From positions 6,042 to 70,041 of the forward strand of contig JBBTRB010000004.1 in assembly GCA_038065395.1 (NCBI GenBank): a stretch of 64,000 nucleotides of DNA, written 5' to 3'. Origin of the DNA: Patescibacteria group bacterium. Lineage in GTDB: Bacteria; Patescibacteriota; Minisyncoccia; Phycocordibacterales; PALSA-1337. This document shows positions 6,001 through 45,598 of this stretch, piece after piece. The stretch's first letter is position 1, and every line of letters starts with the position of its first letter. The position numbers and the translations under genes were made by a program. Under the pieces are notes generated by a model. It searched no databases. It was not told the origin of the DNA and saw only the letters and a program-made list of their open reading frames with translations.

Positions 6001-8753
6001 CATCTCTCTCCATCGGATCTGCTATCACCGGTGGCACACCAGGATCTGTCCTCTTCGTCGATGCAGGAGGTCTTATGGCACAGGACAATGCTGCGTTCTT
6101 TTGGGATTACACCAACGACAGACTCGGTCTCGGTAGCTCGACTCCATACGCAGCACTCTCGGTCGTCGCAAACGGTACCGCACCAAAATTCGTAGTCGCA
6201 ACATCAACTACTGGGGACAACCAACCACTCCTCTTCGTCAACGGTACAACGACAGGGGCACTCGACTGGGCACGTGTAGCGATCGGTACCACTACGACAT
6301 GGGGTGCAGAGTCGGGCCTCCGTGACCAGTTCACCGTGGCAGGCCGTATATATAGTACCTGGCGTGAGATGAGGTGTGACTTCCCGGGAGCGAGTTTGAC
6401 TGCACAGATAACTGCGACTACACCGAACTTCTGTGGAGGGTTCGCTTATCAGCCTGATACCTCGGGTCGCATGGAAAGTCCAGTGACTGTACAGGGAAAT
6501 GCAAACTATTCTCACAACCCACACGTGTTGCGTCTCATCTCCGGTGGAACAACAGACGCCTCTGCTTCGGGCGCTGGTGCCGCTATACGTTCGATCACTA
6601 CATTCTTTGCAGCCTCTTCGAGTCCAACGTTCGAGGTAGTTTCTCGCCTCGGCACATCGACTCAGGCATCGTTCTGGACAATGGCTTCTAGTTCTATTTA
6701 CATGATCGGTTTCCATAACATAACTGCAGGTACGGGTGGTGATGTATCTGTTATTCCTACAAATGCCATTATGTTCGTGGCAACCACGACAACCAACTGG
6801 ATAGCCCTCGTGCGTAATAACAGTACGTATACTTCATATGTCAACACAGGTGTCCCTACCACCACCTCACCAAACATTGCATTCAATCGTTTTCGTATTG
6901 AGGCGAATCAGAATGATGTCACGTTCGTGATCAATGGTAAGGTCGTGTCAAAGCTTGTAAGTAATGGCTCAAATATCCCAAGTACAAACCTCGGATACAT
7001 CATATCTGCCGGATCAACGGCTGCTGGTCGTGGCAAGACCATGGAAATCTCGCAGATACGTCTCTGGGTTGACGATCCGACTGGCGGAGGGATCTCAGAA
7101 GGTTTGCTCGCTGCTGCAAGTGACATGTCGGTCAAGAAAGAAGAAGACGAAGTCACCTTCGAAGATGTGCTGGGGGGATATAATTCTTCTGCAGAATCCG
7201 CCAATAGCATAGAGTATATGGCGAGAGACGCGCGTATGCTCGGTGAAGGAACTCTCGTGTCACTATCCACAACTACGGGTGAAGTAGTACAGAGGGCCCA
7301 AGGCACATACGATCCGTCACTATTCGGTGTAGTGAATATCTCGAGTGTACAGACGTTGGGACATATCAACGAACATACGGTAAAAGTTGCAACGGCCGGA
7401 AGAACGTACGTGCGCGTTAATACCGAAAACGGGCCAATAGTACCAGGAGATTACCTCACTTCTTCTTCTGTAGATGGAGTCGCTATGAAGGCGACAGGTG
7501 CAGGTCAGGTCATCGGACGAGCTATCGAAAAGTTCGACAAGGTTGGTGAGGAAGGACTCATCGTAACAACAGTTGAGCCATCCTATTATGTAGGTAATAC
7601 ATTCGCACTCAACTCTCTTGGCAACATGACAGCGCAGTCGTTCGCTTCACTCACTTCAAAATCTTTCGTAAAGGATGTTGAATATCTCACCGCATCGAGT
7701 ACCGAGACATTGGTAGGTGGTCTCGTTAGTATCAAGGTGTCATATTATAGAGATGTATCCGCAGCTTCGACGTCACCATTGCAGCTCGGTCTGATCACCG
7801 AAGATGTTCCATCTGAGATCAGAACCGCAGATGGGAAGCAGGTAGATCTGCTCAAGCTCTCGGCACTGATCGTGGCTGGACTCCAAGAGCAGAAAAAGAA
7901 GCTTGATGGTCTCCATATAGATACGGTTAACAATGAGCTCGTACTGAGCAAAGCTCTACGAGTAACCAGTATGGCCACATTCGGCGGAGGGCTCACGGTC
8001 GACAGTATCAGTTCTATCGGCACCAGTCTCACATTCAACAACGATACCGTATTCTTTGGCCGACCATACTTCAACACTGACACTGCAGGATTCGCAGTCA
8101 TCGGAGAGGGTGCACGAGATGTAGAAGTAGTATTCGATAGTGAGTATCTCGAACAGCCGATCGTCAACGCATCTATCGCACTCGATGATATAGGTGACGA
8201 AGATCAGGTTGCTGCAGTTTCCGAAGCATTGTTCGATCAAGATATCAGATTCCTGATCACCAAGAAGAGTGTCAAAGGATTCACGATCATCCTCAACAAG
8301 CCGGCACCACGAGATGTTCAGTTCAGTTGGATAGCCTTGGCAGTCAAAGGGGCACGAACTGCAACATCGAGTCAAGTTCAGAATCTACCTGTAGAGGAAG
8401 ACGAACAGGATCCTCAGGTTCCTGAGATCGAGATCGTCCCAGATCCAGATACACAGCCAATAGACGACACTCCGCCTCCTTCAGAAGAGGCGACGACAAC
8501 CATATCAAATGGGGAAGATGATCTTGTGACACCGCCCGTAGCAGAAGAAGAGTCGACTCAGGGAGATCAGACAGGATCGTCCCAAACAGAGGAAGAAGTA
8601 CCACAACCTGAGCCTGTTATAGAAACAGAAGATGCTCCTGAGCCAGAGGTGCAACAGACACCAGAAACATCTCAGGACTCATCAGCTGAAGATACTCCTG
8701 TGGCGTCTGATGATACAGGAGACTCGGATGAGAACGAACCAACCAATCCTTGA
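30..8753 (+). CDS. Giant (2907 aa or longer) Gly/Thr/Ser-rich repetitive surface fibre protein. The reading frame is open to nt 1, so the gene may start upstream of the window; the track uses a TTG start at 30. Contains many VGIGTSSPYAKLSVVGE-type repeats, two ~330-aa beta-propeller-like modules, an S74-intramolecular-chaperone-like domain (nt ~7600-7910) and an acidic Pro/Glu/Asp-rich C-terminal tail.
   Basis: Single uninterrupted frame. Large intragenic near-identical repeats at 136-320/838-1020, 1631-1880/2612-2877, ~2880-3900/~4555-5560 and 3781-4275/5449-5943. The motif GLITEDVPSEIRTADGKQVDLLKLSALIVAGLQEQKKKLDGL resembles the Peptidase_S74/endosialidase chaperone domain of phage tail fibres. 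Confidence 0.75.
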   Translation: MEIQTRDVIFSTGVGAATEAMRLLNTGNLGVGTSSPYAKLSVVGEIVGAYFTATTTATSTFGGSLAVTEANATSTFAGGIDLSDGCFALDGVCIGAGSGAGTVNSGTLGQVAFYAANGTAVSGTSTLILLDEKVGIGTSSPWATLAVNPVAGLAANQFVIGSSTATAFIVNNSGNVGVGTSSIKSKLAIQRTDGSHVEVFPNSGDLLEIYQAADEIRALHIDSDGNTTIANSVGNMFTSSGSSVSLAAVNGIARFFIDTTSNVGIGTTSPYAKLSVVGEIVGAYFTATTTATSTFGGSLAVTEANATSTFAGGIDLSDGCFALDGVCIGAGAGSGTVNTGTAGYFAYYPASNTTVDDQTVLNISGSNIGIGTSSPYATLSVVGQVVASHFNATSTTATSTIANALIIGNSNNLNADTIPLRINSNQTSLEWWTEFSGTSDDQIKIGRDAATGHAKIQAFRDNSVHSLLLNPAGGRVGVATTSPFARFAINPLAGDLFAFAIGSSTKSLLAVSTEGFGTTTLAGLNISGQATSTSNVGFNISAGCFAINGTCISGGGAGSGTVNSGTIGQVAFYSANGTAVSGTSTLILLDEKVGIGTSSPYAKLSVVGEVVARNFTATSTTATTTLAGGLHVNSGALVTNFSTGVTTISTLEAGNFNFEDNAGINSWADLTVTSSAPVDTPQGYIAFLDGNPMFSIYGESNGTGVVKKTAVGIGTSTPFALLSVQNNAFAASSTYSVFIASSTAAFATTTHFAITNTGNVGFGTSSPWATLAVNPSAGFSSNQFVIGSSTATSFLVTNRGFVGVGTTSPSARFAINPLAGDLFAFAIGSSTKSLLSVSTEGFGTTTLAGLDISGQATSTSNVGFNISAGCFAINGTCISGGGAGSGTVNSGTIGQVAFYSANGTAVSGTSTLILLDEKVGIGTSSPYAKLSVVGEVVARNFTATSTTATSTFAATTTVTNLLANKFVDTNQSRWLSLAELGGNRGFGRFTQYNPTVATTSFHAPTNYYLATSTLNLSSSRSTNDSGATYNPVNNSILMINNSNLIYEHDLDGKLLRTITLVGFADTESLVWMYDDMFAIGEESAGMGINFGLRIPNGTTTINRNLATRIDLTGTFGTSNQGVEGLAYDLDRDVFYIGIEGTGDTMSVYTVTRSGAVSVTFSTSTWAAADIGDISDLYYDRNTGHMFAGVDQCNGEANGPASTLCDGMIEIDMTTGAIIDKIHAPAGFSQVEGIGFTPDGRLMFMTSEGDMFAKYIAQDRGTPFSFVQFASSTPVNLSVLTNIGVGTSTPEYGITIATSTKSQLALSAGAGIAQWAFRNAGGNLYLSTTTVLGTATTSISALEIAGDGFGTTTLRGLSILGQATSTSNVGFNITSGCYAVNGTCVGGGGVGGGYSTVQDEGSGLAARSILNFLGTGVSCVDDGVDSTDCTITAGAGSMAIGSSVTSGTSGSVLFVDSGGLLAQDNSHFFWDETNNRLGLGTTSPYAKLSVVGEVVASHFTATSTTATSTFAATTTVRNIVFNGKLVDTNQSRWLSLAELGGNRGFGRFTQYNPTVATTTFHPPTNYYLATSTLNLSSVTASNNSGVTYNPVNNSLFFINNSNFIYEHDLDGKHIRTITLANFTDTEALAWMYDDMFVIGDEQGGRITYLRLPNGTTTVNRNVGTTISTSATFGVGNSTIEGVTYDLDRDVFYIGIEGSGTGAGVYTVTRSGTITATFSTSTWQTANIGDVSDLYYDRNTGHMFASVDQCYGESNGVASTLCDGFIEIDMTTGAIIDKISAPSGFFQVEGIGFTPDGRLMFLDGENDMFAKYIAQDRGTPFSFVQFASSTPVNLSVLTNIGVGTSTPEYGITIATSTKSQLALSAGAGIAQWAFRNAGGNLYLSTTTVLGTATTSISALEIAGDGFGTTTLRGLSILGQATSTSNVGFNITSGCYAVNGTCVGGGGVGGGYSTVQDEGSGLAARSILNFLGTGVSCIDDGVDSTDCTINTSAASLSIGSAITGGTPGSVLFVDAGGLMAQDNAAFFWDYTNDRLGLGSSTPYAALSVVANGTAPKFVVATSTTGDNQPLLFVNGTTTGALDWARVAIGTTTTWGAESGLRDQFTVAGRIYSTWREMRCDFPGASLTAQITATTPNFCGGFAYQPDTSGRMESPVTVQGNANYSHNPHVLRLISGGTTDASASGAGAAIRSITTFFAASSSPTFEVVSRLGTSTQASFWTMASSSIYMIGFHNITAGTGGDVSVIPTNAIMFVATTTTNWIALVRNNSTYTSYVNTGVPTTTSPNIAFNRFRIEANQNDVTFVINGKVVSKLVSNGSNIPSTNLGYIISAGSTAAGRGKTMEISQIRLWVDDPTGGGISEGLLAAASDMSVKKEEDEVTFEDVLGGYNSSAESANSIEYMARDARMLGEGTLVSLSTTTGEVVQRAQGTYDPSLFGVVNISSVQTLGHINEHTVKVATAGRTYVRVNTENGPIVPGDYLTSSSVDGVAMKATGAGQVIGRAIEKFDKVGEEGLIVTTVEPSYYVGNTFALNSLGNMTAQSFASLTSKSFVKDVEYLTASSTETLVGGLVSIKVSYYRDVSAASTSPLQLGLITEDVPSEIRTADGKQVDLLKLSALIVAGLQEQKKKLDGLHIDTVNNELVLSKALRVTSMATFGGGLTVDSISSIGTSLTFNNDTVFFGRPYFNTDTAGFAVIGEGARDVEVVFDSEYLEQPIVNASIALDDIGDEDQVAAVSEALFDQDIRFLITKKSVKGFTIILNKPAPRDVQFSWIALAVKGARTATSSQVQNLPVEEDEQDPQVPEIEIVPDPDTQPIDDTPPPSEEATTTISNGEDDLVTPPVAEEESTQGDQTGSSQTEEEVPQPEPVIETEDAPEPEVQQTPETSQDSSAEDTPVASDDTGDSDENEPTNP

Positions 8754-9827: not shown

Positions 9828-10202
9828 ATGAAAAGCCCTGCATACACAAGAGGTTTCGTTGTTCCAATGCTCATCTTTGCCATTGTCGTTGTTTCTGGTA
9901 TCTCTTTTTATTTTTATCAGAGAGCGAGCAGAGACCCGCAGACTCGAGTCAAACAAGATGCGAGCAAACTCCTGGCAGAAATAGGTGCCATTGTGCTGTT
10001 GCCAACAGATGAGGAGCCGACCATCGCGACCATCACTGACCCAGAGAAACTCAAGGATCAAGTATTTTTCGCCAATGCCAAGCCTGGCTACAAGGTGCTG
10101 ATCTATGCCAAAGCTCGTAAAGTGTTTTTGTACGACCCTGTAGGCAAGAGGTTGATCGATGCTGCCCCTCTCTATTTTGGAGACGAGCCACTCGATAGCT
10201 AA
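9828..10202 (+). CDS. Small membrane-anchored protein, paralog 1 (N-terminal TM plus conserved C-terminal domain TVATITDPEKLKDQ.FFANAK.G.KVLIY..ARK.FLYD)
   Basis: Track ORF 9762-10202 trimmed to the Met before the TM segment (MKSPAYTRG...) to avoid overlap with the convergent gene. Near-duplicate of the next gene. Confidence 0.5.
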   Translation: MKSPAYTRGFVVPMLIFAIVVVSGISFYFYQRASRDPQTRVKQDASKLLAEIGAIVLLPTDEEPTIATITDPEKLKDQVFFANAKPGYKVLIYAKARKVFLYDPVGKRLIDAAPLYFGDEPLDS

Positions 10203-16154: not shown

Positions 16155-16276
16155 AGAGCTAGTCCACAATCTCCATCTACTTCGTTACTTTCTACGCTCA
16201 AACTATCACCGTATACACGATACGGCTCAAGTTTTCGCTTGAAAGTGCCTCGCATATGGAGATTCTGGATACGCTC
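16155..16276 (+). repeat. Structured intergenic repeat, copy A (directly after the ndh stop codon)
   Basis: Shares ~85-90% identity with 23842-23964 and 31112-31234. Conserved hairpins CCGTAT-n5-ATACGG and TCAAG-TTTTCG-CTTGA. Confidence 0.6.
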
Positions 16277-23841: not shown

Positions 23842-23964
23842 AGAGCTAGTCCACTATCTTCATCTGCTTCGTTACTTTCTACGCTCAAACTCTCACCGTA
23901 TGCTCGATACGGCTCGAGTTTTCGCTTGAAAGTGCCTCGCATATGAAAGATAGTGGATACGCTC
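23842..23964 (+). repeat. Structured intergenic repeat, copy B (between divergent aspS and nrnA)
   Basis: Same element as 16155-16276; the loop of hairpin 1 differs (gctcg vs acacg) while the stem is conserved. Confidence 0.6.
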
Positions 23965-28523: not shown

Positions 28524-28562
28524 GAGAGCTAGTCCAGCATCTCCATCCGCTCCGTTATTTTC
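28524..28562 (+). repeat. Truncated copy C of the structured repeat (5' ~40 nt only), directly after the stop codon of the DoxX-Cys gene
   Basis: gagagctagtccagcatctccatccgctccgttattttct aligns with the 5' ends of copies A and B, then diverges. Confidence 0.35.
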
Positions 28563-29526
28563 TCGACAATGGAATAACTATCTCACACACCGTGCCGATC
28601 TTCGGCACGTTTGTGATAGAGAGGGTGCCGGCGAGCTCGTCTTCAACGATTGACTTCACGGTCATGAGACCAGTTCCTGTGCCACTTTTCTTGGTGGTGA
28701 AGGGACGTACCAAGATTGTATCGACATGGTGGTCAGGTATACCTGGCCCATTGTCGGTTATGGATATGCGGATACCATGAGCTTCCGTATTTGTAATATC
28801 AATGATCACTTGTTTGTCATCAGGGGAAGGTGTATCAGCATGAGCCTCGACTGCATTGGAAATAGTATTGAGGAATAGTTGCTGCAGACGTACCGAGTGG
28901 ATCGGTACAGTGAAATGATCATGATTCTGAACAGCGATCGTCACACCAGCGATGCGAGCTTTGTAGGCCAGAAGGTCGAGCACGATCGCAAGCTCACGAG
29001 TACTATCTGCATGTACTTCGCCAGGTACAGGTAGCGGATGTTGCATGACGGCACGGATACTTTCCATGAAAGATGCCATCCGACGTGATGCTTCGACTGC
29101 TGTCTGCACCGTCTGGGAAGTCTCGTTGGTTGTAGATGTGTCTGACTTTGTTGCGAGGCGTTCTACTGAGAGTGATACTGCTGATAGTGGTCCGATCAGG
29201 TCATGGAATAATCCTTTGGAGAGCTTACCAAACTCGGCGATACGCTCCAACTCTTGGCGATGTGCCTTTTGCGCATCGACGAGTTCTAGGGTGCGGTTCG
29301 AGATCTTGTATTCCAGGGAGAACCTGTCTGTCTCGAGTGAAGCATCGATTGTATGGATATGTTCTCGAGATCGACGATGTTCTCTGTAGACCAGATAGAG
29401 GATAGTTGCACCACAGAGGACGATGATACCGAGCGTCGAGAAGTCCAAGATACTATCTGCGAGTCCAGGCACGAATACAGCGGGATATACTCTATCCCGC
29501 TGTAGGAGTTGGACTCTGATACCCAT
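28555..29526 (-). CDS. Sensor histidine kinase (single TM, HisKA + HATPase_c)
   Basis: H-box FHDLIGPLSAV, N/G boxes (NAVEAH, DNGPGI, GTGTGL). Track start 29601 is probably too far upstream. Confidence 0.7.
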   Translation of the reverse strand: MGIRVQLLQRDRVYPAVFVPGLADSILDFSTLGIIVLCGATILYLVYREHRRSREHIHTIDASLETDRFSLEYKISNRTLELVDAQKAHRQELERIAEFGKLSKGLFHDLIGPLSAVSLSVERLATKSDTSTTNETSQTVQTAVEASRRMASFMESIRAVMQHPLPVPGEVHADSTRELAIVLDLLAYKARIAGVTIAVQNHDHFTVPIHSVRLQQLFLNTISNAVEAHADTPSPDDKQVIIDITNTEAHGIRISITDNGPGIPDHHVDTILVRPFTTKKSGTGTGLMTVKSIVEDELAGTLSITNVPKIGTVCEIVIPLSRK

Positions 29527-30961: not shown

Positions 30962-30970
30962 CGTTTGGTC

Positions 30971-31000
30971 ACCAATTCGCCAAGGTAGCTGTCTTGGTAG
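30971..31000 (+). repeat. Partial duplicate of the tRNA-Phe 5' region (accaattcgccaaggtagctgtcttggtag)
   Basis: 26/30 identical to 31029-31058, which spans the start of tRNA-Phe. Confidence 0.4.
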
Positions 31001-31035
31001 GTAACATGATAGATTGAAAATAGCATAACCAATTT

Positions 31036-31111
31036 GCCAAGGTAGCTCAGTTGGTAGAGCATTCCCCTGAAGAGGGAAGGGTCACCAGTTCGATCCTGGT
31101 CCTTGGCACCA
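31036..31111 (+). tRNA. tRNA-Phe (anticodon GAA) with encoded CCA
   Basis: GCCAAGGTAGCTCAGTTGGTAGAGCATTCCCCTGAAGAGGGAAGGGTCACCAGTTCGATCCTGGTCCTTGGCACCA; canonical cloverleaf. Confidence 0.9.
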
Positions 31112-31234
31112 CAGAGCACCTCTATAATCTTCACCTGCTTCGTTATTTTCTACGCTCAAACTCTCACCATATACTTGATATGGCTCGAGTTTTCGCTTGA
31201 AAATGCCTCGTATATGAAAATCGTGGATACGCTC
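31112..31234 (+). repeat. Structured intergenic repeat, copy D (directly after tRNA-Phe)
   Basis: Same element; hairpin 1 carries a compensatory double change (CCATAT...ATATGG vs CCGTAT...ATACGG). Confidence 0.6.
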
Positions 31235-35485: not shown

Positions 35486-35965
35486 ATGGATTTTGACGCT
35501 CTTAAATTCAATAGGATAAAAGAAGAGGCCGAGAGTTTCTATAAATCTCTAGGTGAAATTTACTGTCCGTATTTTAAAGAAAAGGTCTCTTTTAACAGAA
35601 AAGGCTTCGAGCACTTAAAGTTTATTGGAAGAGGTCAAGCACGTTCAGAGAAAGATCAATTTCAGAGATTTAGATTATTACATCTTGCTCCTCAGGTCTT
35701 GGGTTTGACTACTACAATACAAGGGGTCTGGAATACAAGTCATTTCGAAGAGATTAAGAGTAATTCCAGAGTAGAATTTCTACTCAAAAATGTAACTTAC
35801 TACGAATTCATTTCGGTACTTACGTATAAACAAAACTTAAGAAGGGTTAGAATTATAGTTAAGCAAGTAGAAAATAGTTCTAAATACTTTTGGAGTATTA
35901 TTCCAGATTTCAAAAATAAGATAGGTCAAACAAGGGCAATGGGTCTGGAGTTGGAGAATGAGTAA
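35486..35965 (+). CDS. Hypothetical protein encoded in an AT-rich islet
   Basis: ORF with markedly lower GC than its flanks. Bounded by the thrS promoter region and a strong terminator. Confidence 0.4.
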   Translation: MDFDALKFNRIKEEAESFYKSLGEIYCPYFKEKVSFNRKGFEHLKFIGRGQARSEKDQFQRFRLLHLAPQVLGLTTTIQGVWNTSHFEEIKSNSRVEFLLKNVTYYEFISVLTYKQNLRRVRIIVKQVENSSKYFWSIIPDFKNKIGQTRAMGLELENE

Positions 35966-35968
35966 CAA

Positions 35969-35996
35969 AAAACACCACGATGTGGTGTTTTTTGAA
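35969..35996 (+). terminator. Intrinsic terminator (ACACCAC-gat-GTGGTGT followed by TTTTTT)
   Basis: Seen directly after the stop at 35963-35965. Confidence 0.5.
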
Positions 35997-36100: not shown

Positions 36101-37030
36101 TTGAGTGTGTATACGGGGGATCATATACACATGTCCCACCCTCTTTTCAGAAAAGTCATCCCTGCTCTCTCGATAGTAGTCGCACTGGTCGCAGTTAGTG
36201 TTGCGGTATATGCACTGACCGGTAATGCACCAGAACAAAAGCTTGGTATCTTCCTGTATCCAGAGACGATCTTGCCGGGCGATCCGGTGTTCGTGACGAT
36301 ACATGCAACCTCAACTCCCGTAGAAGTATTCGTCGATGGCCAGATAGTCCCGATATTCTTATACCAGGGAGTACCTCATGCACTGTACGCGGTTGATTTT
36401 AACGAAAAGGTCTTGGCACACGAAGTCAAGGTGGTTTTCGAAAGTGGGGAGGTCAGGGAGGTTCCTTTTACCATCACACCACGAGCCAAGATCGAAAGAC
36501 CGATCGGTATCCCAGAGAAGCTCGGTGGCAATACGCCGGTGGCGAGTAAAAACCTGGTGAACAATCTAGCCCGAGAGAATGCAGAGATCGCACGTGTCAC
36601 ATCGAGTGTTACACAGCTATGGGAAGATGCGTTCGTGCTACCTCTCACAAATATTTTCGTAACTGACGACTACGGCTATGACCGGGCAACTGTTGGACAG
36701 ACGATCGTCCACAAGGGCACGGACTTCCGTGCGGCTACGGGCACTCCGGTTGTGGCCATGAATGCGGGTAAGGTAGTTCTCGCCAAAGAATTCACCGTCT
36801 ATGGCAACACGGTCATCGTAGACCACGGTCTCGGTGTCCATACGCTCTACATGCACCTCTCTCATCTCGATGTGAAGGTGGGGGACACGGTCGTGCGAGG
36901 ACAGCTCCTGGGGCAGAGCGGTGTGACTGGATATGCCAACGCTCCACATCTCCATGTCAGTCTAAAAGTAGGAGGAGTATCGATCGATCCGATGGTGTTC
37001 GTGGGGTTTTGGGAGGAGGTTGACCACTGA
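36101..37030 (+). CDS. M23 family metallopeptidase (LytM domain) with N-terminal TM anchor
   Basis: HKGTDFRAATGTPV...VIVDHGLGVHTLYMHLS...GYANAPHLHVSLKV zinc-binding motifs. Start may be at 36131 (MSHPLF). Confidence 0.8.
   Translation: MSVYTGDHIHMSHPLFRKVIPALSIVVALVAVSVAVYALTGNAPEQKLGIFLYPETILPGDPVFVTIHATSTPVEVFVDGQIVPIFLYQGVPHALYAVDFNEKVLAHEVKVVFESGEVREVPFTITPRAKIERPIGIPEKLGGNTPVASKNLVNNLARENAEIARVTSSVTQLWEDAFVLPLTNIFVTDDYGYDRATVGQTIVHKGTDFRAATGTPVVAMNAGKVVLAKEFTVYGNTVIVDHGLGVHTLYMHLSHLDVKVGDTVVRGQLLGQSGVTGYANAPHLHVSLKVGGVSIDPMVFVGFWEEVDH
36986..37017 (+). repeat. Direct repeat 1 (gatccgatggtgttcgtggggttttgggagga) = last codons of the M23 gene
   Basis: Exact 32-nt copy recurs at 39115-39146. 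Confidence 0.7.
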
Positions 37031-37120
37031 TTAAACAAATGTTATTATTTTGACTTAAATCGGATTGCGCTAAGCGCAGTAGCGAAAATTGATCGTTGAA
37101 AACTCAAAAATAAATTCTGA

Positions 37121-38260
37121 ATGAAACAATGTATAGTCAGTATTTGCGTGTATCTTTGTGGTACGTTCGTTTCTCTTGCCGCTGATTTTAGTTTGACATT
37201 TACGCCACATCCAGCAAGGGTCACTTTGGGCTCGAATGTTTTATTGAACACTATCCAATTCTCGTCACGAAACACCTCAGGTGCCCGAGCTGACCTTGTA
37301 TGGATTTTCGATTATCTCCCCGCCCCTGTCTTCCAGACAATTACTGATACTAATGGTGAAGGTCCAGGGTATTGTTTTTGTGGCAGAAGGCAAGACTTCA
37401 ATTTGTTTACGAATTGGAGACTTGTTGATGATCGAGGAATTATTGTTGGCCACGGCTCTGTCATTTTGCCTCATTATCCTGAGACCATGATGGCACGATT
37501 GGTATTTACAAATGTGTCGTTGTCACTAGGAACGAATAAGAACCTGTCATTATCTTTGTTTGCGACCATGGCTTACGATCTTGAAAAAGACATCTCTAGG
37601 GGAATCGTAAGCGGTGATGAAGTGAGAACATCCCTCCTCATGTCTGATCTTAAGATATGGGAAGGAGAAGAACGTCTTTCATTCGAAATGGTTAATAATC
37701 AGCCGGCGCTCGATTATACAATCATTGAGAGGAAACATTATTCAGCGATTGATTTAATAACAGAAGTCGGCGACGAATTGTTGCTTACTGCTCGAGTCGA
37801 ACCTGGTAAACTGTTTAGGCTCGAAGTTGCTGAAAAAATTGACTCGCAAGATAAGTTCAAGAAAGTCTATAGTGGAAGTGAGACTGTTCTTGGGAATGAG
37901 TACGGAGAGATTTTCTTCTTGGTACCCAAATTCTCTGATCGAAACAGATACTTCCGTGTTCGAAGTGTGGAAGATGCAGATATTGATTCGTTCGATCTTG
38001 TCCATATAGGAATTATTCTTCTGGAAAATGGAAGTAATTCTGAAACGGTTCGTGCAGGACAAGTCCTAATTCGTCCGGAAATCAGAACAACAGAACGGGT
38101 TAGGCCGATCGAATACAATTGGTTATCTGATATTGGTGAAACTGGACATCAGGAGAATTTCGCTCCCACTTTCGCGGCAGGAGTACACTGGGTTAGGCTC
38201 TATGTGCGAGGTGCTGCCACTGATGCATTAGCATTTAAGTGGATCATTGTCCGTCCGTAA
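37121..38260 (+). CDS. Hypothetical secreted protein (signal peptide)
   Basis: ORF with N-terminal hydrophobic leader MKQCIVSICVYLCGTFVSLAA. Confidence 0.5.
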   Translation: MKQCIVSICVYLCGTFVSLAADFSLTFTPHPARVTLGSNVLLNTIQFSSRNTSGARADLVWIFDYLPAPVFQTITDTNGEGPGYCFCGRRQDFNLFTNWRLVDDRGIIVGHGSVILPHYPETMMARLVFTNVSLSLGTNKNLSLSLFATMAYDLEKDISRGIVSGDEVRTSLLMSDLKIWEGEERLSFEMVNNQPALDYTIIERKHYSAIDLITEVGDELLLTARVEPGKLFRLEVAEKIDSQDKFKKVYSGSETVLGNEYGEIFFLVPKFSDRNRYFRVRSVEDADIDSFDLVHIGIILLENGSNSETVRAGQVLIRPEIRTTERVRPIEYNWLSDIGETGHQENFAPTFAAGVHWVRLYVRGAATDALAFKWIIVRP

Positions 38261-38387
38261 TTGAACGGAATTATTTTATACCACCGTTCGCGTAACAGCG
38301 ACTGGTGGTTTTTTATTTCCCACAACGCTACACCTTCACTCACCCCACCAGAGTATCGATTTACTAATATAACTATACAGATGTATC

Positions 38388-39044
38388 ATGACTATCTATA
38401 AAAAATGGTTACAAAGGGTTGTGCGAGGAGTTGGGGTGATCGTAGTGACAGTACTCGTATCCGGGATATCCGCATCTGTCTTTGCGGCGACGTTGGAGCG
38501 TGAACTAGAGGTAGGCGCAACAGGGACTGATGTATCTGCACTGCAGACATTTCTCGCACAAGACTCGACGATATATCCGCAAGGTCTCGTTACCGGATAC
38601 TTCGGCTTTCTTACTAAGGCAGCAGTCTCGAATTTCCAAAGTCGCAATGATATCCCTACCGTGGGTCGTGTCGGACCTTTGACCTTGAGAATACTCAACA
38701 GTCAGATGTCGGGACCTATTGTGGGTAGCAGCGGTGTTGCACCGACTATATCCAATGCCTCCATAAGTACCGGCAGGAACAGTGTGAATCTCAACTGGAA
38801 TACCAACGAGTACGCAAGTGGTGTTGTGTACTACAGTGAGAATCCTCTTATATTGAGAGAACAATTCAACTCTGTCGATGTGTCAGGGAACTTCTCTACA
38901 GCTAACGCTGGTTCAGGTACGTCACTGAATGCAGTGATCTCCGGATTATCATCGGATACACGATATTACTACATGGTCTATGTGACAGATCAAACAGGCA
39001 ATGTCAGTGTCATGTGGCCGTCTACCTTCCAAACAACAAACTAA
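38388..39044 (+). CDS. Peptidoglycan-binding (PG_binding_1) domain protein with C-terminal FN3-like domain
   Basis: GTDVSALQTFLAQ...GYFGFLTKAAVSNFQSRNDIPTVGRVGPLTL matches the PG-binding repeat. N-terminal TM. Confidence 0.6.
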   Translation: MTIYKKWLQRVVRGVGVIVVTVLVSGISASVFAATLERELEVGATGTDVSALQTFLAQDSTIYPQGLVTGYFGFLTKAAVSNFQSRNDIPTVGRVGPLTLRILNSQMSGPIVGSSGVAPTISNASISTGRNSVNLNWNTNEYASGVVYYSENPLILREQFNSVDVSGNFSTANAGSGTSLNAVISGLSSDTRYYYMVYVTDQTGNVSVMWPSTFQTTN

Positions 39045-39068
39045 TCTATATACAATTTGGAAGAACAT

Positions 39069-39100
39069 GAAACCGTTTCATCATATATGAACGGTTTTTG
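39069..39100 (+). terminator. Terminator-like hairpin (AACCGTT-n-AACGGTT followed by TTTTG)
   Basis: Located after the stop of 38388-39044. Confidence 0.4.
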
Positions 39101-39114
39101 TGTGTGGGGAGATA

Positions 39115-39146
39115 GATCCGATGGTGTTCGTGGGGTTTTGGGAGGA
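39115..39146 (+). repeat. Direct repeat 2, exact copy of 36986-37017
   Basis: 32/32 identity, extends to ~35/36 with flanking bases. Confidence 0.7.
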
Positions 39147-39286
39147 ATACATTTACAGCAGGTAAGATTACATAGGATTGGACTATCGGATACTTTTATG
39201 GTATCTATATTTTAGAAACTATACTGGAAAACACCCAGAATAACGCACCTTTACAGTTAAGGTGACGAACAACCTGAAAGGATGAT

Positions 39287-41563
39287 ATGGACTTGCCAAT
39301 CATTGCCAAGAAAGCAGAAATCATCAGTGCAGTTACGGACAACAAGGTAGTCATCGTTACGGGGGAAACTGGGTGCGGAAAAACTTCGCAACTTCCAGTA
39401 ATTCTCCATGAAATGGGACTATCCCAACGAGGTCCGATAGTGGTTGCAGAACCACGTCGGGCTGCAGCGATTGCGACCGCAGAATACGTCGCTTCGCAGA
39501 TCGGCTCGGAACTCGGGGAACGTGTCGGATACCATGTTCGCTTTGGCAACGTCAGTGTTGCGGGCACAGCGATCAAATTCGTGACCAACGGAATACTCCT
39601 TCGGGAAATGTTCTCTGGTTCCTTGTTTGAGCGATACAGTGCTGTGATCATTGATGAAGCCCACGAGCGTAGCTTGGAAATCGACCTCCTTCTTGGACTT
39701 GCCAAACGTGCAGCCCGAATAAGGAATAATTTCCGAGTTATCATCGCTTCGGCCACACTCAATGCTGAAGCCTTGTCAAAATACTTCGAAGGAGCTCCAG
39801 TCATCAATGTTCCAGGAAGGCAGTTTCCTGTGACTATCTCATACCATCGTCGCACTCTCCCTCGCATAGAGTGGGTCGTGCGCGCGGTGGCAAAGAAAAT
39901 CATGGCGATACTTGCAGACACAAAAGAAGGCGATATCCTAGCGTTCATGCCAGGACGTGACAGCATTGAAGCGGTCATTGCCGAGATTTGGAGTCAGGAA
40001 GGGGGACGAATTGTAACCCTGCCATTCCACAAGGACATGGAGGCAACTGAATATCATCGCATCTTCGAGGAATTTCCTGGGATGCGGAAGGTAATCATCG
40101 CCACCAATATTGCTGAAACATCCCTGACATTGCCTACGGTGAAATTTGTCTTGGATAGCGGCCTCATCAAGGAAGTCGACTACTGTTCAGAAACAGGAAT
40201 TGAAAGCCTTGCGATCGCGCCTCACTCACAAAGTGGGTGCATCCAACGAAGTGGCCGAGTAGGGAGAGTGTCGGAAGGGACGTGTCACAGGCTTTATCCT
40301 GAACCGTCCTTTGAGCTCCGACCTCCATATACCAAGCCTGAAATTCTTCGGCGAAAGCTAGATATCACACTCCTCTACCTCAGAACTCTGGGATTTGAGG
40401 GTCCTGGCGCATTCGAGTTTGTCGATAAGCCTGATGAGAAGGTATTCACCCAGGCAAAAGAGGAACTCGTTAAATTGGGGGCGTTCTCATCAACTAATGG
40501 GGATCTCACCAATGCCGGGAAACTCATGGTGGCTCTGCCACTTGTTCCTCGAGTGGGACGTCTCGTTGTTGAGGCTGCCAAACGAGGTTGCGTGCGCGAG
40601 ATACTGTCATACGCCTCCTTCCTTGCTTCGCCTGCCGTTTTCCTTCGCCCTTGGGGTAATGAGAAAAAGGCACGCTCGGTTCAATCGCAATTCTTTGTTC
40701 CGCATTCAGACGTTTTAACATTTCTGAAGGTGTGGCAAGGATACGCCGATTCAGGTCAGTCAAAGGCTTGGTGTGAAGAACACTTCCTTTGTCCGCACGC
40801 TCTCGGCGAGGTTGCACTTGCCAGAGAGCAGCTCTCACGCATCCTCCTTGATCGCAATATCGGAATGAGCAGTAATTCGTCAGAGGATGTTTTGGTCCAG
40901 ACGATTGCCGCTTCATTGCACGCCTATCTCTTGAAGCACGAGGGAAAAGGAAATTATGTCGGAGTGTTCCATGACTTCGGGAAGGTACGCATCCATCCTG
41001 GGTCGGCATTGTGGGGTACAACACCGGATCATATCGTTGCGACAAGCATCGTAAAGGTCTGGCATCCATATGCCGCACAATGCACGGCAGTTAACAGGGA
41101 AATTATGGCGAAAGTCTTTCCCCAGTTGTTGCCGAAACCTGCTCAGGAAATTCCGAGGGAAAAAGTGGTTGAAAGACCACCTGCTCCTGAAGTTACTGCA
41201 ACCATCGTTAAAGTTTCAGAAAAATTTGTCGTTGATGAAAAAGTCACGCTGGTTTTTGTGAAGCATAAAAACGAGTTGGTCGCCTTGTATCGAGGAGCAC
41301 TGCTTCAGCAGTTAGAAAGAGGATCAATCGTACCGATCCCTGGTAGGCTCTACGCCTGTTCAGTCTTTTCCGAAGGGGGGAAGCTGACTCTGAAACTCCA
41401 CAAGGAGATTCTTCCAGGAGAGAAAAATGGGACGAAAGATTCACATCGAATTGTTGGGGATGTGCTTAAAAGCAAAATCGATCGAAGACTTGAGGTTACC
41501 GAGGAGACTGCCGATTTAGCACATGACCTGGCTACTTCATGGCAGTGCCGTCTCGATGATTGA
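39287..41563 (+). CDS. hrpA: ATP-dependent DEAH-box RNA helicase (HrpA/HrpB family)
   Basis: GETGCGKTSQLP Walker A, IIDEAHERS motif II, HA2/OB C-terminal region; 758 aa. Confidence 0.8.
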   Translation: MDLPIIAKKAEIISAVTDNKVVIVTGETGCGKTSQLPVILHEMGLSQRGPIVVAEPRRAAAIATAEYVASQIGSELGERVGYHVRFGNVSVAGTAIKFVTNGILLREMFSGSLFERYSAVIIDEAHERSLEIDLLLGLAKRAARIRNNFRVIIASATLNAEALSKYFEGAPVINVPGRQFPVTISYHRRTLPRIEWVVRAVAKKIMAILADTKEGDILAFMPGRDSIEAVIAEIWSQEGGRIVTLPFHKDMEATEYHRIFEEFPGMRKVIIATNIAETSLTLPTVKFVLDSGLIKEVDYCSETGIESLAIAPHSQSGCIQRSGRVGRVSEGTCHRLYPEPSFELRPPYTKPEILRRKLDITLLYLRTLGFEGPGAFEFVDKPDEKVFTQAKEELVKLGAFSSTNGDLTNAGKLMVALPLVPRVGRLVVEAAKRGCVREILSYASFLASPAVFLRPWGNEKKARSVQSQFFVPHSDVLTFLKVWQGYADSGQSKAWCEEHFLCPHALGEVALAREQLSRILLDRNIGMSSNSSEDVLVQTIAASLHAYLLKHEGKGNYVGVFHDFGKVRIHPGSALWGTTPDHIVATSIVKVWHPYAAQCTAVNREIMAKVFPQLLPKPAQEIPREKVVERPPAPEVTATIVKVSEKFVVDEKVTLVFVKHKNELVALYRGALLQQLERGSIVPIPGRLYACSVFSEGGKLTLKLHKEILPGEKNGTKDSHRIVGDVLKSKIDRRLEVTEETADLAHDLATSWQCRLDD

Positions 41564-41585
41564 AAAGTTTTTGAAAAAAATAAAA

Positions 41586-41614
41586 GCCGGAGTGGAAACA
41601 CTCCGGCCTTTTTG
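41586..41614. terminator. Bidirectional intrinsic terminator (GCCGGAGTG-gaaa-CACTCCGGC flanked by A-run and T-run)
   Basis: Sits between convergent hrpA and the 41633-42349 gene. Confidence 0.55.
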
Positions 41615-41632
41615 TATATGTTGCTCGGCTTA

Positions 41633-42349
41633 TTAAGCCGGTGAGTAGGCGCCTCGGGCTGCCTTGAGTTTTTTCTTGAGTTCGCTCCCATCTTCTTTCA
41701 AACAGACCGATATCCTTCCGATTGCTCGGTAGAGGCCGTCTTGATCGAGATGGAACGCACTCAGTATTTCGGGCAAGGGGATTTTTGGAAAATCATCCCA
41801 GACCAGAAACACCACTGCGTCTTTTGCAAGCATGACTTCGGCGGCGGGATCACGGCTTTGCAGAAGATCAGCACCCAGGAAAACCCCAGTGACCGCTTTC
41901 TGCACATTTCCGATGACTTGCGCTGTGTTCCCAGAAGCAATGATCGGTGTGGTCTCGGTTTTCGTCGGTCCTTTTGCACTGAGCGGTGTTGATTGAGGTG
42001 ATGGACTGGCGGGCGCAGAAGGGGAACTGGTCCCACTCGGCATGGCTGCGATCATAAGAGCCTCGGTTTTGATTTCTTCAATCAATGAAGCCAAGGTCGC
42101 ATCGGCTTTCAGTAACGTTTTGACCTTTTTGACTGCCTGATAGACGTCAGGATTATGTTTCCTTCCGACGACTTCTCTCGAAGCCTTGAGTGATGCACCG
42201 AGCTCTTCCCTGAGGGTGTACATTACCACCTTCTTGGCCACCAGATCACCCTTGTCGCCTCTGAGGATTTCAGGCGTGGTCTTGTAGTGAACTGCAACCA
42301 TCGCGAGTACTTTTTGAACGATTCGAGGGTCTTGGGTCTTCGCTTTCAT
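41633..42349 (-). CDS. Protein with an N-terminal DnaA-C-terminal-like helix-turn-helix domain and a C-terminal domain of unknown function
   Basis: PRIVQKVLAMVAVHYKTTPEIL...AKKVVMYTLREELGASLKASREVVGRKHNPDVYQAVKKV parallels DnaA domain IV (...RQMAMALAKELT..SL.EIG..FGGRDHTTVLHA.RKI). Confidence 0.5.
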   Translation of the reverse strand: MKAKTQDPRIVQKVLAMVAVHYKTTPEILRGDKGDLVAKKVVMYTLREELGASLKASREVVGRKHNPDVYQAVKKVKTLLKADATLASLIEEIKTEALMIAAMPSGTSSPSAPASPSPQSTPLSAKGPTKTETTPIIASGNTAQVIGNVQKAVTGVFLGADLLQSRDPAAEVMLAKDAVVFLVWDDFPKIPLPEILSAFHLDQDGLYRAIGRISVCLKEDGSELKKKLKAARGAYSPA

Positions 42350-42449
42350 AATTCCTCTCTTTTGTTAAGGTTCATATGCATTTACCGAAATCTTTGACTC
42401 TGATTACAATACTACACGATTTTGGAATCTTGTAAAGGGGTAATAAAAA

Positions 42450-42473
42450 GGCCATCCGTCTTTGCGGATGGCC
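42450..42473 (-). terminator. Intrinsic terminator of the sigma-factor gene (GGCCATCCG-caaagac-CGGATGGCC followed by T-run on the minus strand)
   Basis: 9-bp perfect stem; A5 on the plus strand gives T5 after the hairpin on the minus strand. Confidence 0.5.
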
Positions 42474-42493
42474 ATGTGCTCGATGCTTTCGCA

Positions 42494-45400
42494 TCAAAGA
42501 TTCTGTAATTCAACCACGAGGCGAACTTTCTCAAACTCTTGGGTATAACCCACCATCAGATCCGCGTCCGACGGATCTAAAGTCAGAGTCAATCGTTCCA
42601 TGGTCGTGACGAGAATCTGTTGCACTCGGGAACGAGTGATATTGTAGGTTTGTCCTAAGGCTTCATACGTCGGAGTTTCTTTTGTTGGGTCTCCTCCGAA
42701 ACGAAGCCGGAGGATATCCTTGTGGCGGTCTGGCACATCTAGTGCGTCGAGCTTGGCGTGGAGTCGTTGAACTTTTGCTTGGAAAGGTTTTACAATTTTT
42801 TCCACAATGCTTTTTAGTTCCTCAACCTGTTTAGGGAAAAGGATCTTCTGGCATTGTTTTATTTGTTGCAAATCTCCTCCATAAACATCCAGGCTATACT
42901 GACCTCGTATGAGTTTCAGTTTTGCTTGAAGGTCTGCATCAGTCTTCATTTCTTCCGCCATGCCACTGCAAATTACGGAAGCGCGACTATAATCACCGAA
43001 TCCGAAGATTTGCGCTACTTCCTGACACTGGACGTTGAAGTCAGTGCGCAGAACGTGCATCGCAAAACTTTTTGCACGAATCCGATATTTTTCCGGGTCG
43101 TCGGGTCTTGTATGTGACCTGGCGAACAGTTTCGACTTCTCGACGTCGAATGCTTGGCTCGTGAGAGTAAGGACTTGATCGACAATCGGAGAAGCTGCTT
43201 TTAATGCAGACTCTGCGGCCAGAGCAACTTGTTCAGGGTCAACTTGTTTTTCCTGTCGAAAACCGCACAAGGCGATGATTTTTTCGATCTCATCGGCAAG
43301 GGCAGTGTCCCTCTCAATCGCTTGTTTGAGCGACCGATGTCCATGCATGGCCGTCGTGTGGTCAGCGTAGTGGAGAGCCTGTCCAATTCCCACAAAAGAG
43401 GATTTGAGTTCCTCCCTCATGATATATGTGCAGACCCATCTTACCCAAACAACTTCGTTCGGGCGAGATTCACCGAGTATTATCTCTGGTGTTTTCCCAT
43501 AAACATCGCCGACAACTCGGATAATGTCTTCTGGTGTAGGCGTTCCTGGCTTGACCTCTGCGAGTTTGGCTTGAGGACGTCTTGGGGTAATTGTCACCCC
43601 TGGAATCATCTCTCCGCCACTTCTCTCGGCATCATCCTGGAATACGATTGAGACTTCATCCAAGATCAAGGCTTCGGCTGGAGTGGACAGATCGGCTTCA
43701 GCACATACGATGTTTTCAAGATCGTGGACGCGCTTAAGCTCCTCATTAAGTTTCTCTCGAGTCATTGCGATTCCGTGTTTCGCCAACTCCTGCCAGACCT
43801 TATCTTCCATTTGCTGAATTCGTGAGCGAGTCACTCCTCCCATTGCGGGGCGAATTGACTCGTGTGTATGATCTTCGGGATAACCCTCAAGGCCCCAGAA
43901 CATTTTGAATACCGTCTTGCAACGATCACTGATTGGCAGCGCTTTAATCGCCGCTAACAATGTTCTGATGTTCCGAGAGGCTATCTCCAAATCCTCCTTT
44001 GCTTCGAGAGCAGTAGAGGCAGAAGGGAAGCAGTTGTCCATGATGTGATCGCCGATGGTGACATCGCTGTCTTTCGACGAGGCACTGTAAGCCAACTCCT
44101 CCAAAGACACGACGGGAACTTTGAGTTGATGGAGAATCTTCTTCACCTTATCAACGTCTAGCTCCGCTCGAGCTGCCACTTCTTCAAGCGTCGGTTCGCG
44201 TTGCAGTTCCAATCCGAGCTCGCACGTTATCTTGAGGACCTTGTTGAGAGCCTCAATTGCGTGAACTGGCATCCGGATGATGTTCGTGAAGTTTTGGATC
44301 GCACGAGCGATATAGGATCTGATCCACCATGTCGCATACGTAGAGAAGTGAAATCCCTTTTCAGGGTCAAATCTCTCCGCTGCGACCATGAGACCCATAT
44401 TTCCTTCCTGAACAAGGTCGTCGTAGTCCAAACCTCGACCCATATAGTGCGCGGCGATTTTCATCGACAAGCGCAAGTTATGAACCACGATGGTGTTGCG
44501 GGCTTCGTAGTCGGCGTGCATGTGCCATCGGCGTGCCAATTCTAGTAGGTCCTGATGCTTCAGAAACTTATGGTTTTTGACGGCACTATAGTAAGGATTG
44601 CTGACTCCTGATTCACGATCGAAGATGAACTTCGGTATGAATTCTCCGTTCGGATCAGCATGCTCGCTTTCCTCGCCATCAGTTTCCTTATTCTCTTCCA
44701 GTTCGAGCAAAGCCTCTTTTGAAGGCTCTTCCGAAACAGTTTCGCTAATACCGGTTGAGTTGAACAAAGCCGGTAGCTTACCCCTGTTGGAGGATGGTGA
44801 TTCGGGGCGACGAGAGTAGGACGTCTCGGGACTGTGTGAATCTGGTTTTTTGTAATGAACCTCACCAATCACAATCTTGACATCGATGGCTCCCAGCAAC
44901 TGGGTGATCCAACGCATTGTTGTTCGTAACTTTGCATTGTCCTGCGAAATTTCCGCAGGGATGAGAGTTCCGATTTGCTGTGGCGAGATATGACCTTTCG
45001 CTTTGGCTGCCAGAAGAATTCCGAGAGAGTCAGGCACAAGGCCTTGCTCGCGCAAAATTTTGGCATTCAAGAAAGACGACTCGTGTCCTTCTCCTGCGTA
45101 TTGTGGTCCCTTAGCAGGAGCTAAGGGAGGAACAGTCTGTTCCTTGACCTTCGGTTGCGGTTTCGGCTTGATAGTCGGAACTGCAGAGGATTGGACAACA
45201 TGGTTATGTACGACGTTAAACGTGACGCTAATGTTGAGATTTTGCAGTATTTTTTTAATTTCCTGCAACACCCCTGCCATCTTGTTTCGGTCTTTCGCTA
45301 ACGCCGTGGAAATCATCTCACTGATTTCCTGAGGGGTGATGGTACCTCGTTCCTTGGCTCGGTTGAGAGTGTCCTTGGCAGTGGGCTTTAAACCCCATCT

Positions 45401-45502
45401 TTCAAGTACAGCATCATCAAAGCCGCTAAATGAGGGGTCGATTCTTTCGATCATTTTTGCTCCAGTGGTTGAATTGTTAATGTGCGAAGACTGAAAGTAC
45501 AC
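42494..45502 (-). CDS. rpoD: RpoD-like sigma-70 factor (1002 aa) with duplicated region-1.1-like N-terminus, regions 2-3-4, two DnaA-C-like HTH domains and a second C-terminal region-4 copy
   Basis: DLVQEGNMGLMVAAERFDPEKGFHFSTYATWWIRSYIARAI (region 2), IRMPVHAIEALNKV (region 3), two region-4.2-like segments (GGVTRSRIQQMEDKV and YNITRSRVQQILVTTMERL), and HYADHTTAMHGHRSL (DnaA_C-like). Confidence 0.75.
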   Translation of the reverse strand: MYFQSSHINNSTTGAKMIERIDPSFSGFDDAVLERWGLKPTAKDTLNRAKERGTITPQEISEMISTALAKDRNKMAGVLQEIKKILQNLNISVTFNVVHNHVVQSSAVPTIKPKPQPKVKEQTVPPLAPAKGPQYAGEGHESSFLNAKILREQGLVPDSLGILLAAKAKGHISPQQIGTLIPAEISQDNAKLRTTMRWITQLLGAIDVKIVIGEVHYKKPDSHSPETSYSRRPESPSSNRGKLPALFNSTGISETVSEEPSKEALLELEENKETDGEESEHADPNGEFIPKFIFDRESGVSNPYYSAVKNHKFLKHQDLLELARRWHMHADYEARNTIVVHNLRLSMKIAAHYMGRGLDYDDLVQEGNMGLMVAAERFDPEKGFHFSTYATWWIRSYIARAIQNFTNIIRMPVHAIEALNKVLKITCELGLELQREPTLEEVAARAELDVDKVKKILHQLKVPVVSLEELAYSASSKDSDVTIGDHIMDNCFPSASTALEAKEDLEIASRNIRTLLAAIKALPISDRCKTVFKMFWGLEGYPEDHTHESIRPAMGGVTRSRIQQMEDKVWQELAKHGIAMTREKLNEELKRVHDLENIVCAEADLSTPAEALILDEVSIVFQDDAERSGGEMIPGVTITPRRPQAKLAEVKPGTPTPEDIIRVVGDVYGKTPEIILGESRPNEVVWVRWVCTYIMREELKSSFVGIGQALHYADHTTAMHGHRSLKQAIERDTALADEIEKIIALCGFRQEKQVDPEQVALAAESALKAASPIVDQVLTLTSQAFDVEKSKLFARSHTRPDDPEKYRIRAKSFAMHVLRTDFNVQCQEVAQIFGFGDYSRASVICSGMAEEMKTDADLQAKLKLIRGQYSLDVYGGDLQQIKQCQKILFPKQVEELKSIVEKIVKPFQAKVQRLHAKLDALDVPDRHKDILRLRFGGDPTKETPTYEALGQTYNITRSRVQQILVTTMERLTLTLDPSDADLMVGYTQEFEKVRLVVELQNL

Positions 45503-45598
45503 TACCTTAATTATAGTGACTTGTCCAGTACTTTCTTAAAGTAAAAACACACCACCACTCGCTAGGTGATTGGTGGTTTTTTCTTACCTGGGGAAGAT

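Follow-up and report, generated by a model that had tools for sequence, protein, structure and literature searches.

Two genes between 32-nt direct repeats where an M23 peptidase gene ends in a groundwater Patescibacteria genome

The window analysed here is a 64-kb stretch (64,000 nt) of contig JBBTRB010000004.1, which belongs to a metagenome-assembled genome (MAG) of Patescibacteria from groundwater of the Hainich aquifer, well H41. It contains a gene for an M23 family peptidoglycan metallopeptidase (36131–37030, + strand; Pfam PF01551, E 2.6e-30), and the subject of this report is the DNA that follows: 2,097 nt (37018–39114) bracketed by direct repeats that match the 3′ end of the M23 gene. 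Two genes lie between the repeats. The first encodes a 379-aa protein without a Pfam match and the second a 218-aa protein with peptidoglycan (PG)-binding and FN3 domains; for these genes as for M23, the domain searches agree with a preliminary description of the window made from the letters alone. Beyond the second repeat is the gene for an HrpA-like DEAH helicase (39287–41563, +), which adjoins M23 in no relative.

Direct repeats at the end of the M23 gene

The window contains the 32-mer GATCCGATGGTGTTCGTGGGGTTTTGGGAGGA exactly two times (36986–37017 and 39115–39146), both on the + strand and at the positions that had been reported for it. None of 100 dinucleotide shuffles matched a repeat of this length, and the analytic expectation in 64 kb is about 1e-10. 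The pair lengthens to 36 nt (starts at 36982 and 39111) with one mismatch, GATC versus GATA, which is synonymous in the M23 frame, ATC in copy 1 and ATA in copy 2 both coding for Ile. Copy 1 (36982–37017, +) is attL-like, that is, in the position of a left attachment (att) site; it consists of 32 exact nt plus 4 nt with the mismatch and encodes (S)IDPMVFVGFWE(E), the exact part covering the D-P-M-V-F-V-G-F-W-E codons and 2 nt of the next E codon. Copy 2 (39111–39146, +) is attR-like and is a non-coding remnant of an M23 3′ end.

The repeat arrangement is real and does not stem from faulty assembly. The metaSPAdes assemblies of three independent replicates (L001–L003) are at least 99.98% identical to the window through both repeats, and none of the six differences between them and the window falls inside the repeats. 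Logan k=31 contigs from two runs (L004, L006 and L014) end exactly at the repeats, because a genuine 32-nt repeat does this to a k=31 graph, which is unable to resolve it.

Direct repeats bracketing a discrete segment, with short-k assemblies that break there, could also be expected of a transposon or insertion sequence (IS) with target-site duplication, of an integron cassette, of an Xer/dif-exploiting element or of an artefact, but taken jointly these explanations are very improbable. As to an artefact, the three metaSPAdes assemblies cross both repeats with identical junctions. A transposon or IS is ruled out, as there are no terminal inverted repeats at the ends of the segment and no transposase within it, and the duplication of 32–36 nt is far above the 2–15 bp of known transposon target duplications. 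An integron gene cassette is ruled out because shuffled sequences fold as well as the repeat itself (z −0.23), which forms no hairpin that could be called attC-like, and because no integron integrase IntI was found among the tested open reading frames (ORFs) of the window, which cover about 8.7–56 kb. Integrative mobile elements exploiting Xer (IMEX) were likewise rejected: the repeat is without dyad symmetry (best score 5/10 positions) when compared with 28-bp dif-like sites, and the site falls within a coding gene.

The segment between the repeats

The segment consists of two self-contained transcription units. For the first, a sigma-70-like promoter, TTGACC-17-(TG)TATTAT, is predicted at 37020–37048 (+) by consensus match only, with 10/12 matches and an extended −10 TG. 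It starts 2 nt past copy 1, and its −35 box overlaps the V-D-H codons with which M23 now ends. The gene that follows (37121–38260, +) encodes the 379-aa protein, which is all-beta and, having a signal-like segment at its N-terminus, putatively secreted; no match was obtained for it in Pfam, PHROG or NCBIfam. Its family is rare, with only 6 representatives among 1.84 billion proteins. The protein comprises about three beta-sandwich domains and a PKD-like C-terminal 70 aa that is conserved in the family alignment. The AlphaFold (AF2) model, of medium confidence (pLDDT 67), is made of strands throughout, arranged in about three sandwich domains. An assignment of function from this structure was attempted and dropped, as Foldseek gave only generic Ig/PKD/adhesin beta-sandwich matches with a template-modelling (TM) score <0.3. 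The gene has a GC content of 0.426, and its GC content at third codon positions (GC3) is 0.376 versus a window mean of 0.503 (SD 0.071), about 1.8 SD lower. It is followed by an intrinsic terminator-like hairpin and U-run at 38280–38315 (+; −21.6 kcal/mol, z −3.97).

The second unit has a weak promoter-like site (38360–38389, +; 9/12 matches) at the start of the gene for the 218-aa protein (38388–39044, +). This protein combines PG_binding_1 (PF01471) with the FN3-like domain Pur_ac_phosph_N (PF16656) and carries a signal or transmembrane segment. It belongs to a common Paceibacteria family with 768 homologues, the best non-self match being about 60% identical, and its PHROG matches arise only via the PG-binding domain. 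Another intrinsic terminator-like hairpin with a U-run (39068–39099, +; −17.9 kcal/mol, z −2.64) lies 12–16 nt in front of copy 2, so the repeat does stand just past the terminator of the second gene, as had been noted. Judged by these predicted signals, the insert is a compact unit with a strong promoter-like site at its left edge and a terminator at its right edge. Both proteins are probably secreted, to the cell envelope or surface, and would be a plausible, if functionally unproven, cargo beside a peptidoglycan peptidase.

The intergenic spaces of the insert measure 90, 127 and 70 nt and therefore leave no room for an integrase or a decayed integrase remnant. The two ORFs are without recombinase domains, no remnant genes of an integrative and conjugative element (ICE) or integrative and mobilizable element (IME) were detected in the insert, and Rfam recognized no known RNA in this region. 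The absence of an integrase, which was part of the preliminary description, is thus borne out, whereas the degraded island proposed there is not favoured, given that spaces of 70–127 nt hold no integrase remnants. The skew in GC content and codon usage suggested as a check is found in the 379-aa gene, whose GC3 is atypical and is counted for an insertion, but not in the 218-aa gene, which is normal, and the argument from composition is only moderate.

Evidence for a conserved pair of cargo genes was sought and not obtained. In L013 and L098, the homologue of the 379-aa gene stands alone, in a chromosomal context and without repeats, and the 218-aa family elsewhere sits after unrelated ORFs of 187–201 aa. 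A separate observation concerns L013, which contains an exact 17-nt direct repeat, CCCGAGAGTGAAACTCT, at 8488–8504 and 10082–10098, where chance would give about 0.001 in 7 kb; the homologue of the 379-aa gene contains one of the copies, and the other is intergenic.

The M23 locus and its relatives

The M23 gene is called by NCBI at 299 aa from 36131, and an alternative TTG start at 36101 would give 309 aa; the NCBIfam matches of the protein are Pgp3/MepM-like and below cut-off. The closest M23 homologues are only 57–67% identical. These orthologues terminate in ...GFWE, ...FWEE or ...FWEK, with the stop 0–1 codons after WE, and therefore the repeat ends where the conserved protein ends. Copy 1 had been described as the last 11 codons of the gene; it does lie within the M23 3′ end, but V-D-H and the stop codon still follow it. 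This new tail (37018–37030, +), composed of the last base of the Glu codon, V-D-H and the stop, would come from the left end of the insert. The junction, at a gene 3′ terminus and with the ORF preserved, resembles those of elements that target gene 3′ ends.

On the other side of the insert, the sequence 3′ of copy 2 (39147–39164, +) reads (E)YIYSR* in the M23 frame and is probably the displaced original gene end. The ATA (Ile) variant in copy 2 is the codon used by the orthologues in L008 and L010. The first 6 nt after copy 2 (ATACAT) match 5/6 nt of the stop-codon region ATAAAT in L011 and L012, and in BLAST comparisons the L011 match to copy 2 reaches 39152, while matches to copy 1 end at 37015–37019. 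These agreements weakly suggest that copy 2 and the right flank are the displaced original end of M23, in which TAA has since turned into TAC, and likewise that, if the copy 2 side is native, the DNA right of copy 1 is insert DNA. The high DNA identity of the M23 end among the four closest relatives is due to conservation of the protein; the M23 3′ end as a nucleotide-conserved att site was ruled out, because more distant homologues show free variation at synonymous sites.

The gene order thrS(−)/M23(+) is conserved, with the upstream thrS common to L008/L009, L010 and L011; L012 has the same M23 as L011. In the four relatives with a thrS-M23 or M23-dnaE neighbourhood, both cargo genes are absent and there is a single M23 end. 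What lies 3′ of M23 is a ResIII/SNF2 helicase in L008/L009, a 113-aa ORFan in L010, a 102-aa ORFan unrelated to the latter in L011/L012, and a convergent gene, 44 nt past M23, on the P0004 contig. The helicase of L008 was considered as an HrpA orthologue and rejected, being of the ResIII/SNF2 type (BLASTP E 0.035). In every relative examined, the M23 stop is followed by a different lineage-specific gene, so that this position is a hypervariable slot. The opposite side of M23 is variable as well. Between thrS and M23 the window has a 159-aa ORFan (35486–35965) of very low GC content (0.338; GC3 0.319) with its own hairpin terminator (35966–35994). This ORFan is the sole member of its protein cluster, is flanked only by a weak 14-nt direct repeat (12/14) and is missing at that position in L008 and L010, where the thrS-M23 gap is 56–93 nt.

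After the ORFan, the next conserved gene in L010 and L012 is dnaE, collinear with the window from 45599 onward, and from this gene order the ancestral neighbour of M23 appears to be dnaE and not hrpA. An empty site with M23 followed directly by hrpA, which the preliminary description had proposed to look for, was found nowhere; the DNA downstream of M23 varies among the relatives, two of which lead to dnaE, so that hrpA itself belongs to a lineage-specific region of 8.6 kb (37019–45598). Besides hrpA and the cargo genes, this region contains a 238-aa gene and a gene for a 1002-aa sigma70/DnaA_C protein. The last of these (42494–45502, −) has sigma-70 regions 2, 3 and 4, the latter two being separated by an embedded Bac_DnaA_C helix-turn-helix domain; next comes the 238-aa gene (41633–42349, −), the product of which has a weak DnaA_C match.

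Comparison with the relatives supports the view that the DNA between the repeats (2,097 nt) was inserted recently, and in this lineage, at the M23 3′ end, and is not what remains of an old tandem duplication. The discrete insertion proposed at the outset agrees with relatives in which both genes are missing and M23 has one 3′ end only. With 32/32 identity between the repeats, as against differences of 17–30% between the flanking genes and those of the relatives, the event is recent. Relatives sharing the arrangement with diverged repeats, which had been named as the sign of an old tandem duplication, were not found; the relatives are without a second M23 end, and a remnant of that kind is therefore not supported. 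For a wider comparison, 80 further M23 loci were fetched from other metagenomes, about 60 of them with a recognizable gene end. No second copy of the M23 3′ end was present in the relatives or in these loci (about 60–70 tested), and recurrent duplication of this end was dismissed because the loci gave only chance-level matches of 11–17 nt.

Several findings weigh against the explanation favoured below, an insertion by a single crossover. The closest relatives are no more than 67% identical in M23, and therefore no isogenic empty site is at hand; the M23 protein constructed for such a site (...EEYIYSR) is not in a collection of 15 billion proteins. The flanks 3′ of copy 1 and copy 2 are without significant similarity to the DNA downstream of M23 in the relatives, so that the choice of the native flank rests on 6 nt. 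There is no integrase or recombinase in the insert or in the tested ORFs of the window, and the repeat core has neither dyad symmetry nor a hairpin. No further copy of the element or of the 32-mer occurs in about 98 fetched loci, in IMG/VR or in phage or plasmid collections. The two cargo genes are never adjacent in the other loci examined, and the 218-aa gene, with a GC content of 0.470 that is normal for the window, is compositionally native-like.

The search of GTDB genomes with HrpA for an empty site returned only L007 (CAYIFO010000009.1), a contig of a Hainich MAG labelled Saccharibacteria. As an empty site it is uninformative, only 718 nt being shared (window 39199–39916) in an unrelated context. 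The shared piece (L007 9913–10630) is 90% identical to the hrpA promoter and first 210 codons; it has unrelated surroundings near ftsZ, its ORF is truncated at 235 aa, and it is either a recombined gene fragment or part of a chimeric contig.

The hrpA block gives rise to a different account of the repeats. All of 37019–45598 is missing between M23 and dnaE in L010 and L012, and the hrpA block is thus also a lineage-specific arrival; the piece in L007, from the same aquifer, suggests that hrpA DNA moves or recombines there. It may be that the cassette was already beside M23 and that a fragment was then patched in from a sister strain in which hrpA came after M23. This fragment would have started within the M23 3′ end and spanned hrpA, the 238-aa gene and the sigma gene in the direction of dnaE. 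Such patching would be a homology-facilitated illegitimate recombination anchored on the right, by which the 36-nt M23 end of the donor was left as a stray second copy, and the ATA allele of copy 2 is as expected from a different strain or orthologue. This course of events is nevertheless unlikely. It needs two events, before which the cassette must have entered without a scar and precisely where the gene ends; the searches returned no strain with an M23-hrpA or M23-cassette-dnaE adjacency; and the atypical composition is in a cassette gene and not in the hrpA block.

Possible routes of integration and known elements

The structure of the locus is best explained by a Campbell-type integration, by whatever enzyme, to which we would give about an even chance of being correct. 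We infer a circular intermediate and a single crossover. A circular DNA of 2,129 bp would have borne a 32–36-nt copy of the M23 3′ end beside the terminator of its second gene. One reciprocal crossover between this circle and the chromosomal M23, within the shared segment of 32–36 nt, would yield as its classical product the order B-O-P′ ... P-O-B′, with one hybrid copy of the shared sequence left at each side. M23 would thereby stay intact and gain three codons from the insert (V-D-H) that overlap with the −35 box belonging to the first insert promoter, and the old M23 end would be stranded, non-coding, in front of hrpA.

Either a site-specific recombinase supplied in trans or the host's own homologous recombination, working on short homology, could have carried out the crossover. 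Identity blocks of att sites have lengths that include 32–36 nt, and RecA-dependent recombination has its lower limit close to this length. Site-specific integration, the mechanism first proposed for this locus, is only one of several that give such a scar, and no integrase, second element, circular junction or recurrent use of the site was found in the loci and collections searched. The repeat, the segment and the 379-aa protein have no matches in IMG/VR or in phage or plasmid collections; the 218-aa protein has none in IMG/VR, the sole collection checked for it.

A one-off event, seen nowhere else in the loci tested, that involved no recombinase, inverted repeats or att-like symmetry could also point to template switching during replication or repair, of the type of fork stalling and template switching or microhomology-mediated break-induced replication (FoSTeS/MMBIR) or by synthesis-dependent strand annealing (SDSA). 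Synthesis would have left the M23 end, copied 2.1 kb elsewhere and resumed 32–36 nt upstream of the point of departure, duplicating that stretch; the duplication-deletion event considered in the preliminary description is a variant of this process. Other small local duplications are present in the window, such as a partial tRNA-Phe pseudo-copy at 30967–31002. Template switching is nonetheless quite unlikely, as the two copies agree at 3/4 of the positions just left of the exact repeat, with a synonymous difference, which fits another M23 allele better than the resident copy. Nor is there a second copy of the 2.1-kb segment inside the 64-kb window that could have served as the source, and the boundaries of the insert coincide neatly with a promoter and a terminator.

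The closest known kind of element is an integrase-less, att-flanked islet that is either like a cis-mobilizable element (CIME) or like the microcin H47 (MccH47) island. Elements at the fda 3′ end of Streptococcus thermophilus, with repeats of about 27 bp, are reportedly an example of CIMEs. The islet shares with CIMEs the direct repeats that stem from a protein gene's 3′ end, the intact target ORF and the lack of an internal integrase, and any mobility of the islet would require a recombinase in trans. CIMEs are defined as att-flanked remnants of ICEs or IMEs that have lost their integration and transfer genes (PMC5704250). In contrast, the islet is only 2.1 kb long, contains no decayed integrase or transfer remnants and resides in Patescibacteria, and no integrase-bearing relative at the M23 site, no second occurrence and no related element were found in the searches. 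It agrees with the definition in structure only, since a test for an origin in a decayed ICE or IME gave no support, and the strict CIME label does not fit.

The MccH47 island of Escherichia coli lacks recombination genes of its own and excises and integrates via host functions, which has been termed a 'parasitic strategy' (PMC3191183). Both this island and the islet are small, flanked by direct repeats and without their own recombination genes. However, the MccH47 island is 13 kb long, has long imperfect repeats and att sites found widely across strains, and was demonstrated by experiment to be mobile (PMC3191183), none of which holds or is known to hold for the islet of 2.1 kb. The dusA-specific islands, which encode an integrase, insert where a protein gene ends and restore that gene (PMC4482086). 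Insertion in the terminus of a coding gene, supply of a replacement end and a duplicated gene fragment on the far side are common to these islands and the islet. Unlike the islet, dusA islands have a dedicated integrase beside the att site and hit the same gene in hundreds of genomes (PMC4482086), and the other M23 loci tested have no duplicated end. Of the features of integrative elements, the locus has the flanking repeats, one of them in the terminus of the target gene, and the preserved ORF. It has no internal integrase or recombinase, and neither the element nor its att site recurs in the other genomes searched. In place of a true empty site, there are relatives with one M23 end that are 57–67% identical and in which the right flank is not hrpA.

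The window has further repetitive features away from M23. A repeat of about 125 nt, with 82–93% identity and one orientation throughout, is present in three full copies (16155–16276, 23842–23963 and 31113–31234) and a truncated one (28524–28563). Three of the four copies begin 1–2 nt past the end of a + strand gene or tRNA, namely NDH2 (stop 16154), DoxX (28523) and tRNA-Phe (31111). The repeat folds as a single hairpin of 43–45 pairs (−46 to −53 kcal/mol), 4 pairs of which show compensatory changes among three copies, and it resembles a miniature inverted-repeat transposable element (MITE) or a palindromic element like the enterobacterial repetitive intergenic consensus (ERIC). It has no Rfam match and was not found in the syntenic L011, in the approximately 98 fetched loci or in IMG/VR. 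The tRNA-Phe pseudo-copy mentioned above is partial and permuted and lies 57 nt upstream of the intact tRNA-Phe (31036–31111). It reads GGTCACCAATTCG + CCAAGGTAGCTgtcTTGGTAG, a T-arm-like piece fused to the 5′ acceptor/D-arm, and may have been left behind by a duplication or by an integration event at the tRNA. A giant ORF of 2907 aa (30–8753) contains internally repeated units, with many families of direct repeats spaced 315–1674 nt apart, and presumably encodes a repetitive surface protein.

As it stands, the M23 locus carries a fairly ordinary, small, repeat-flanked islet whose mobility is not demonstrated. It keeps an unusually clean junction signature beside a conserved gene with flanks that are variable in every relative, and the gain of lineage-specific surface or cell-wall genes by the small genomes of Patescibacteria (candidate phyla radiation, CPR) is little documented. 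The slot beside M23 may be one that is refilled, either by integrase-independent capture of small circles through one crossover on about 30 nt of homology or by a minimal cassette moved by a recombinase that acts in trans and targets the conserved M23 3′ end, a notion that we regard as a long shot. If it is true, the locus would be the fresh scar of a process that fills 'ORFan slots' on both sides of M23 in reduced genomes, and would reveal a cassette-type route of gene gain in Patescibacteria.

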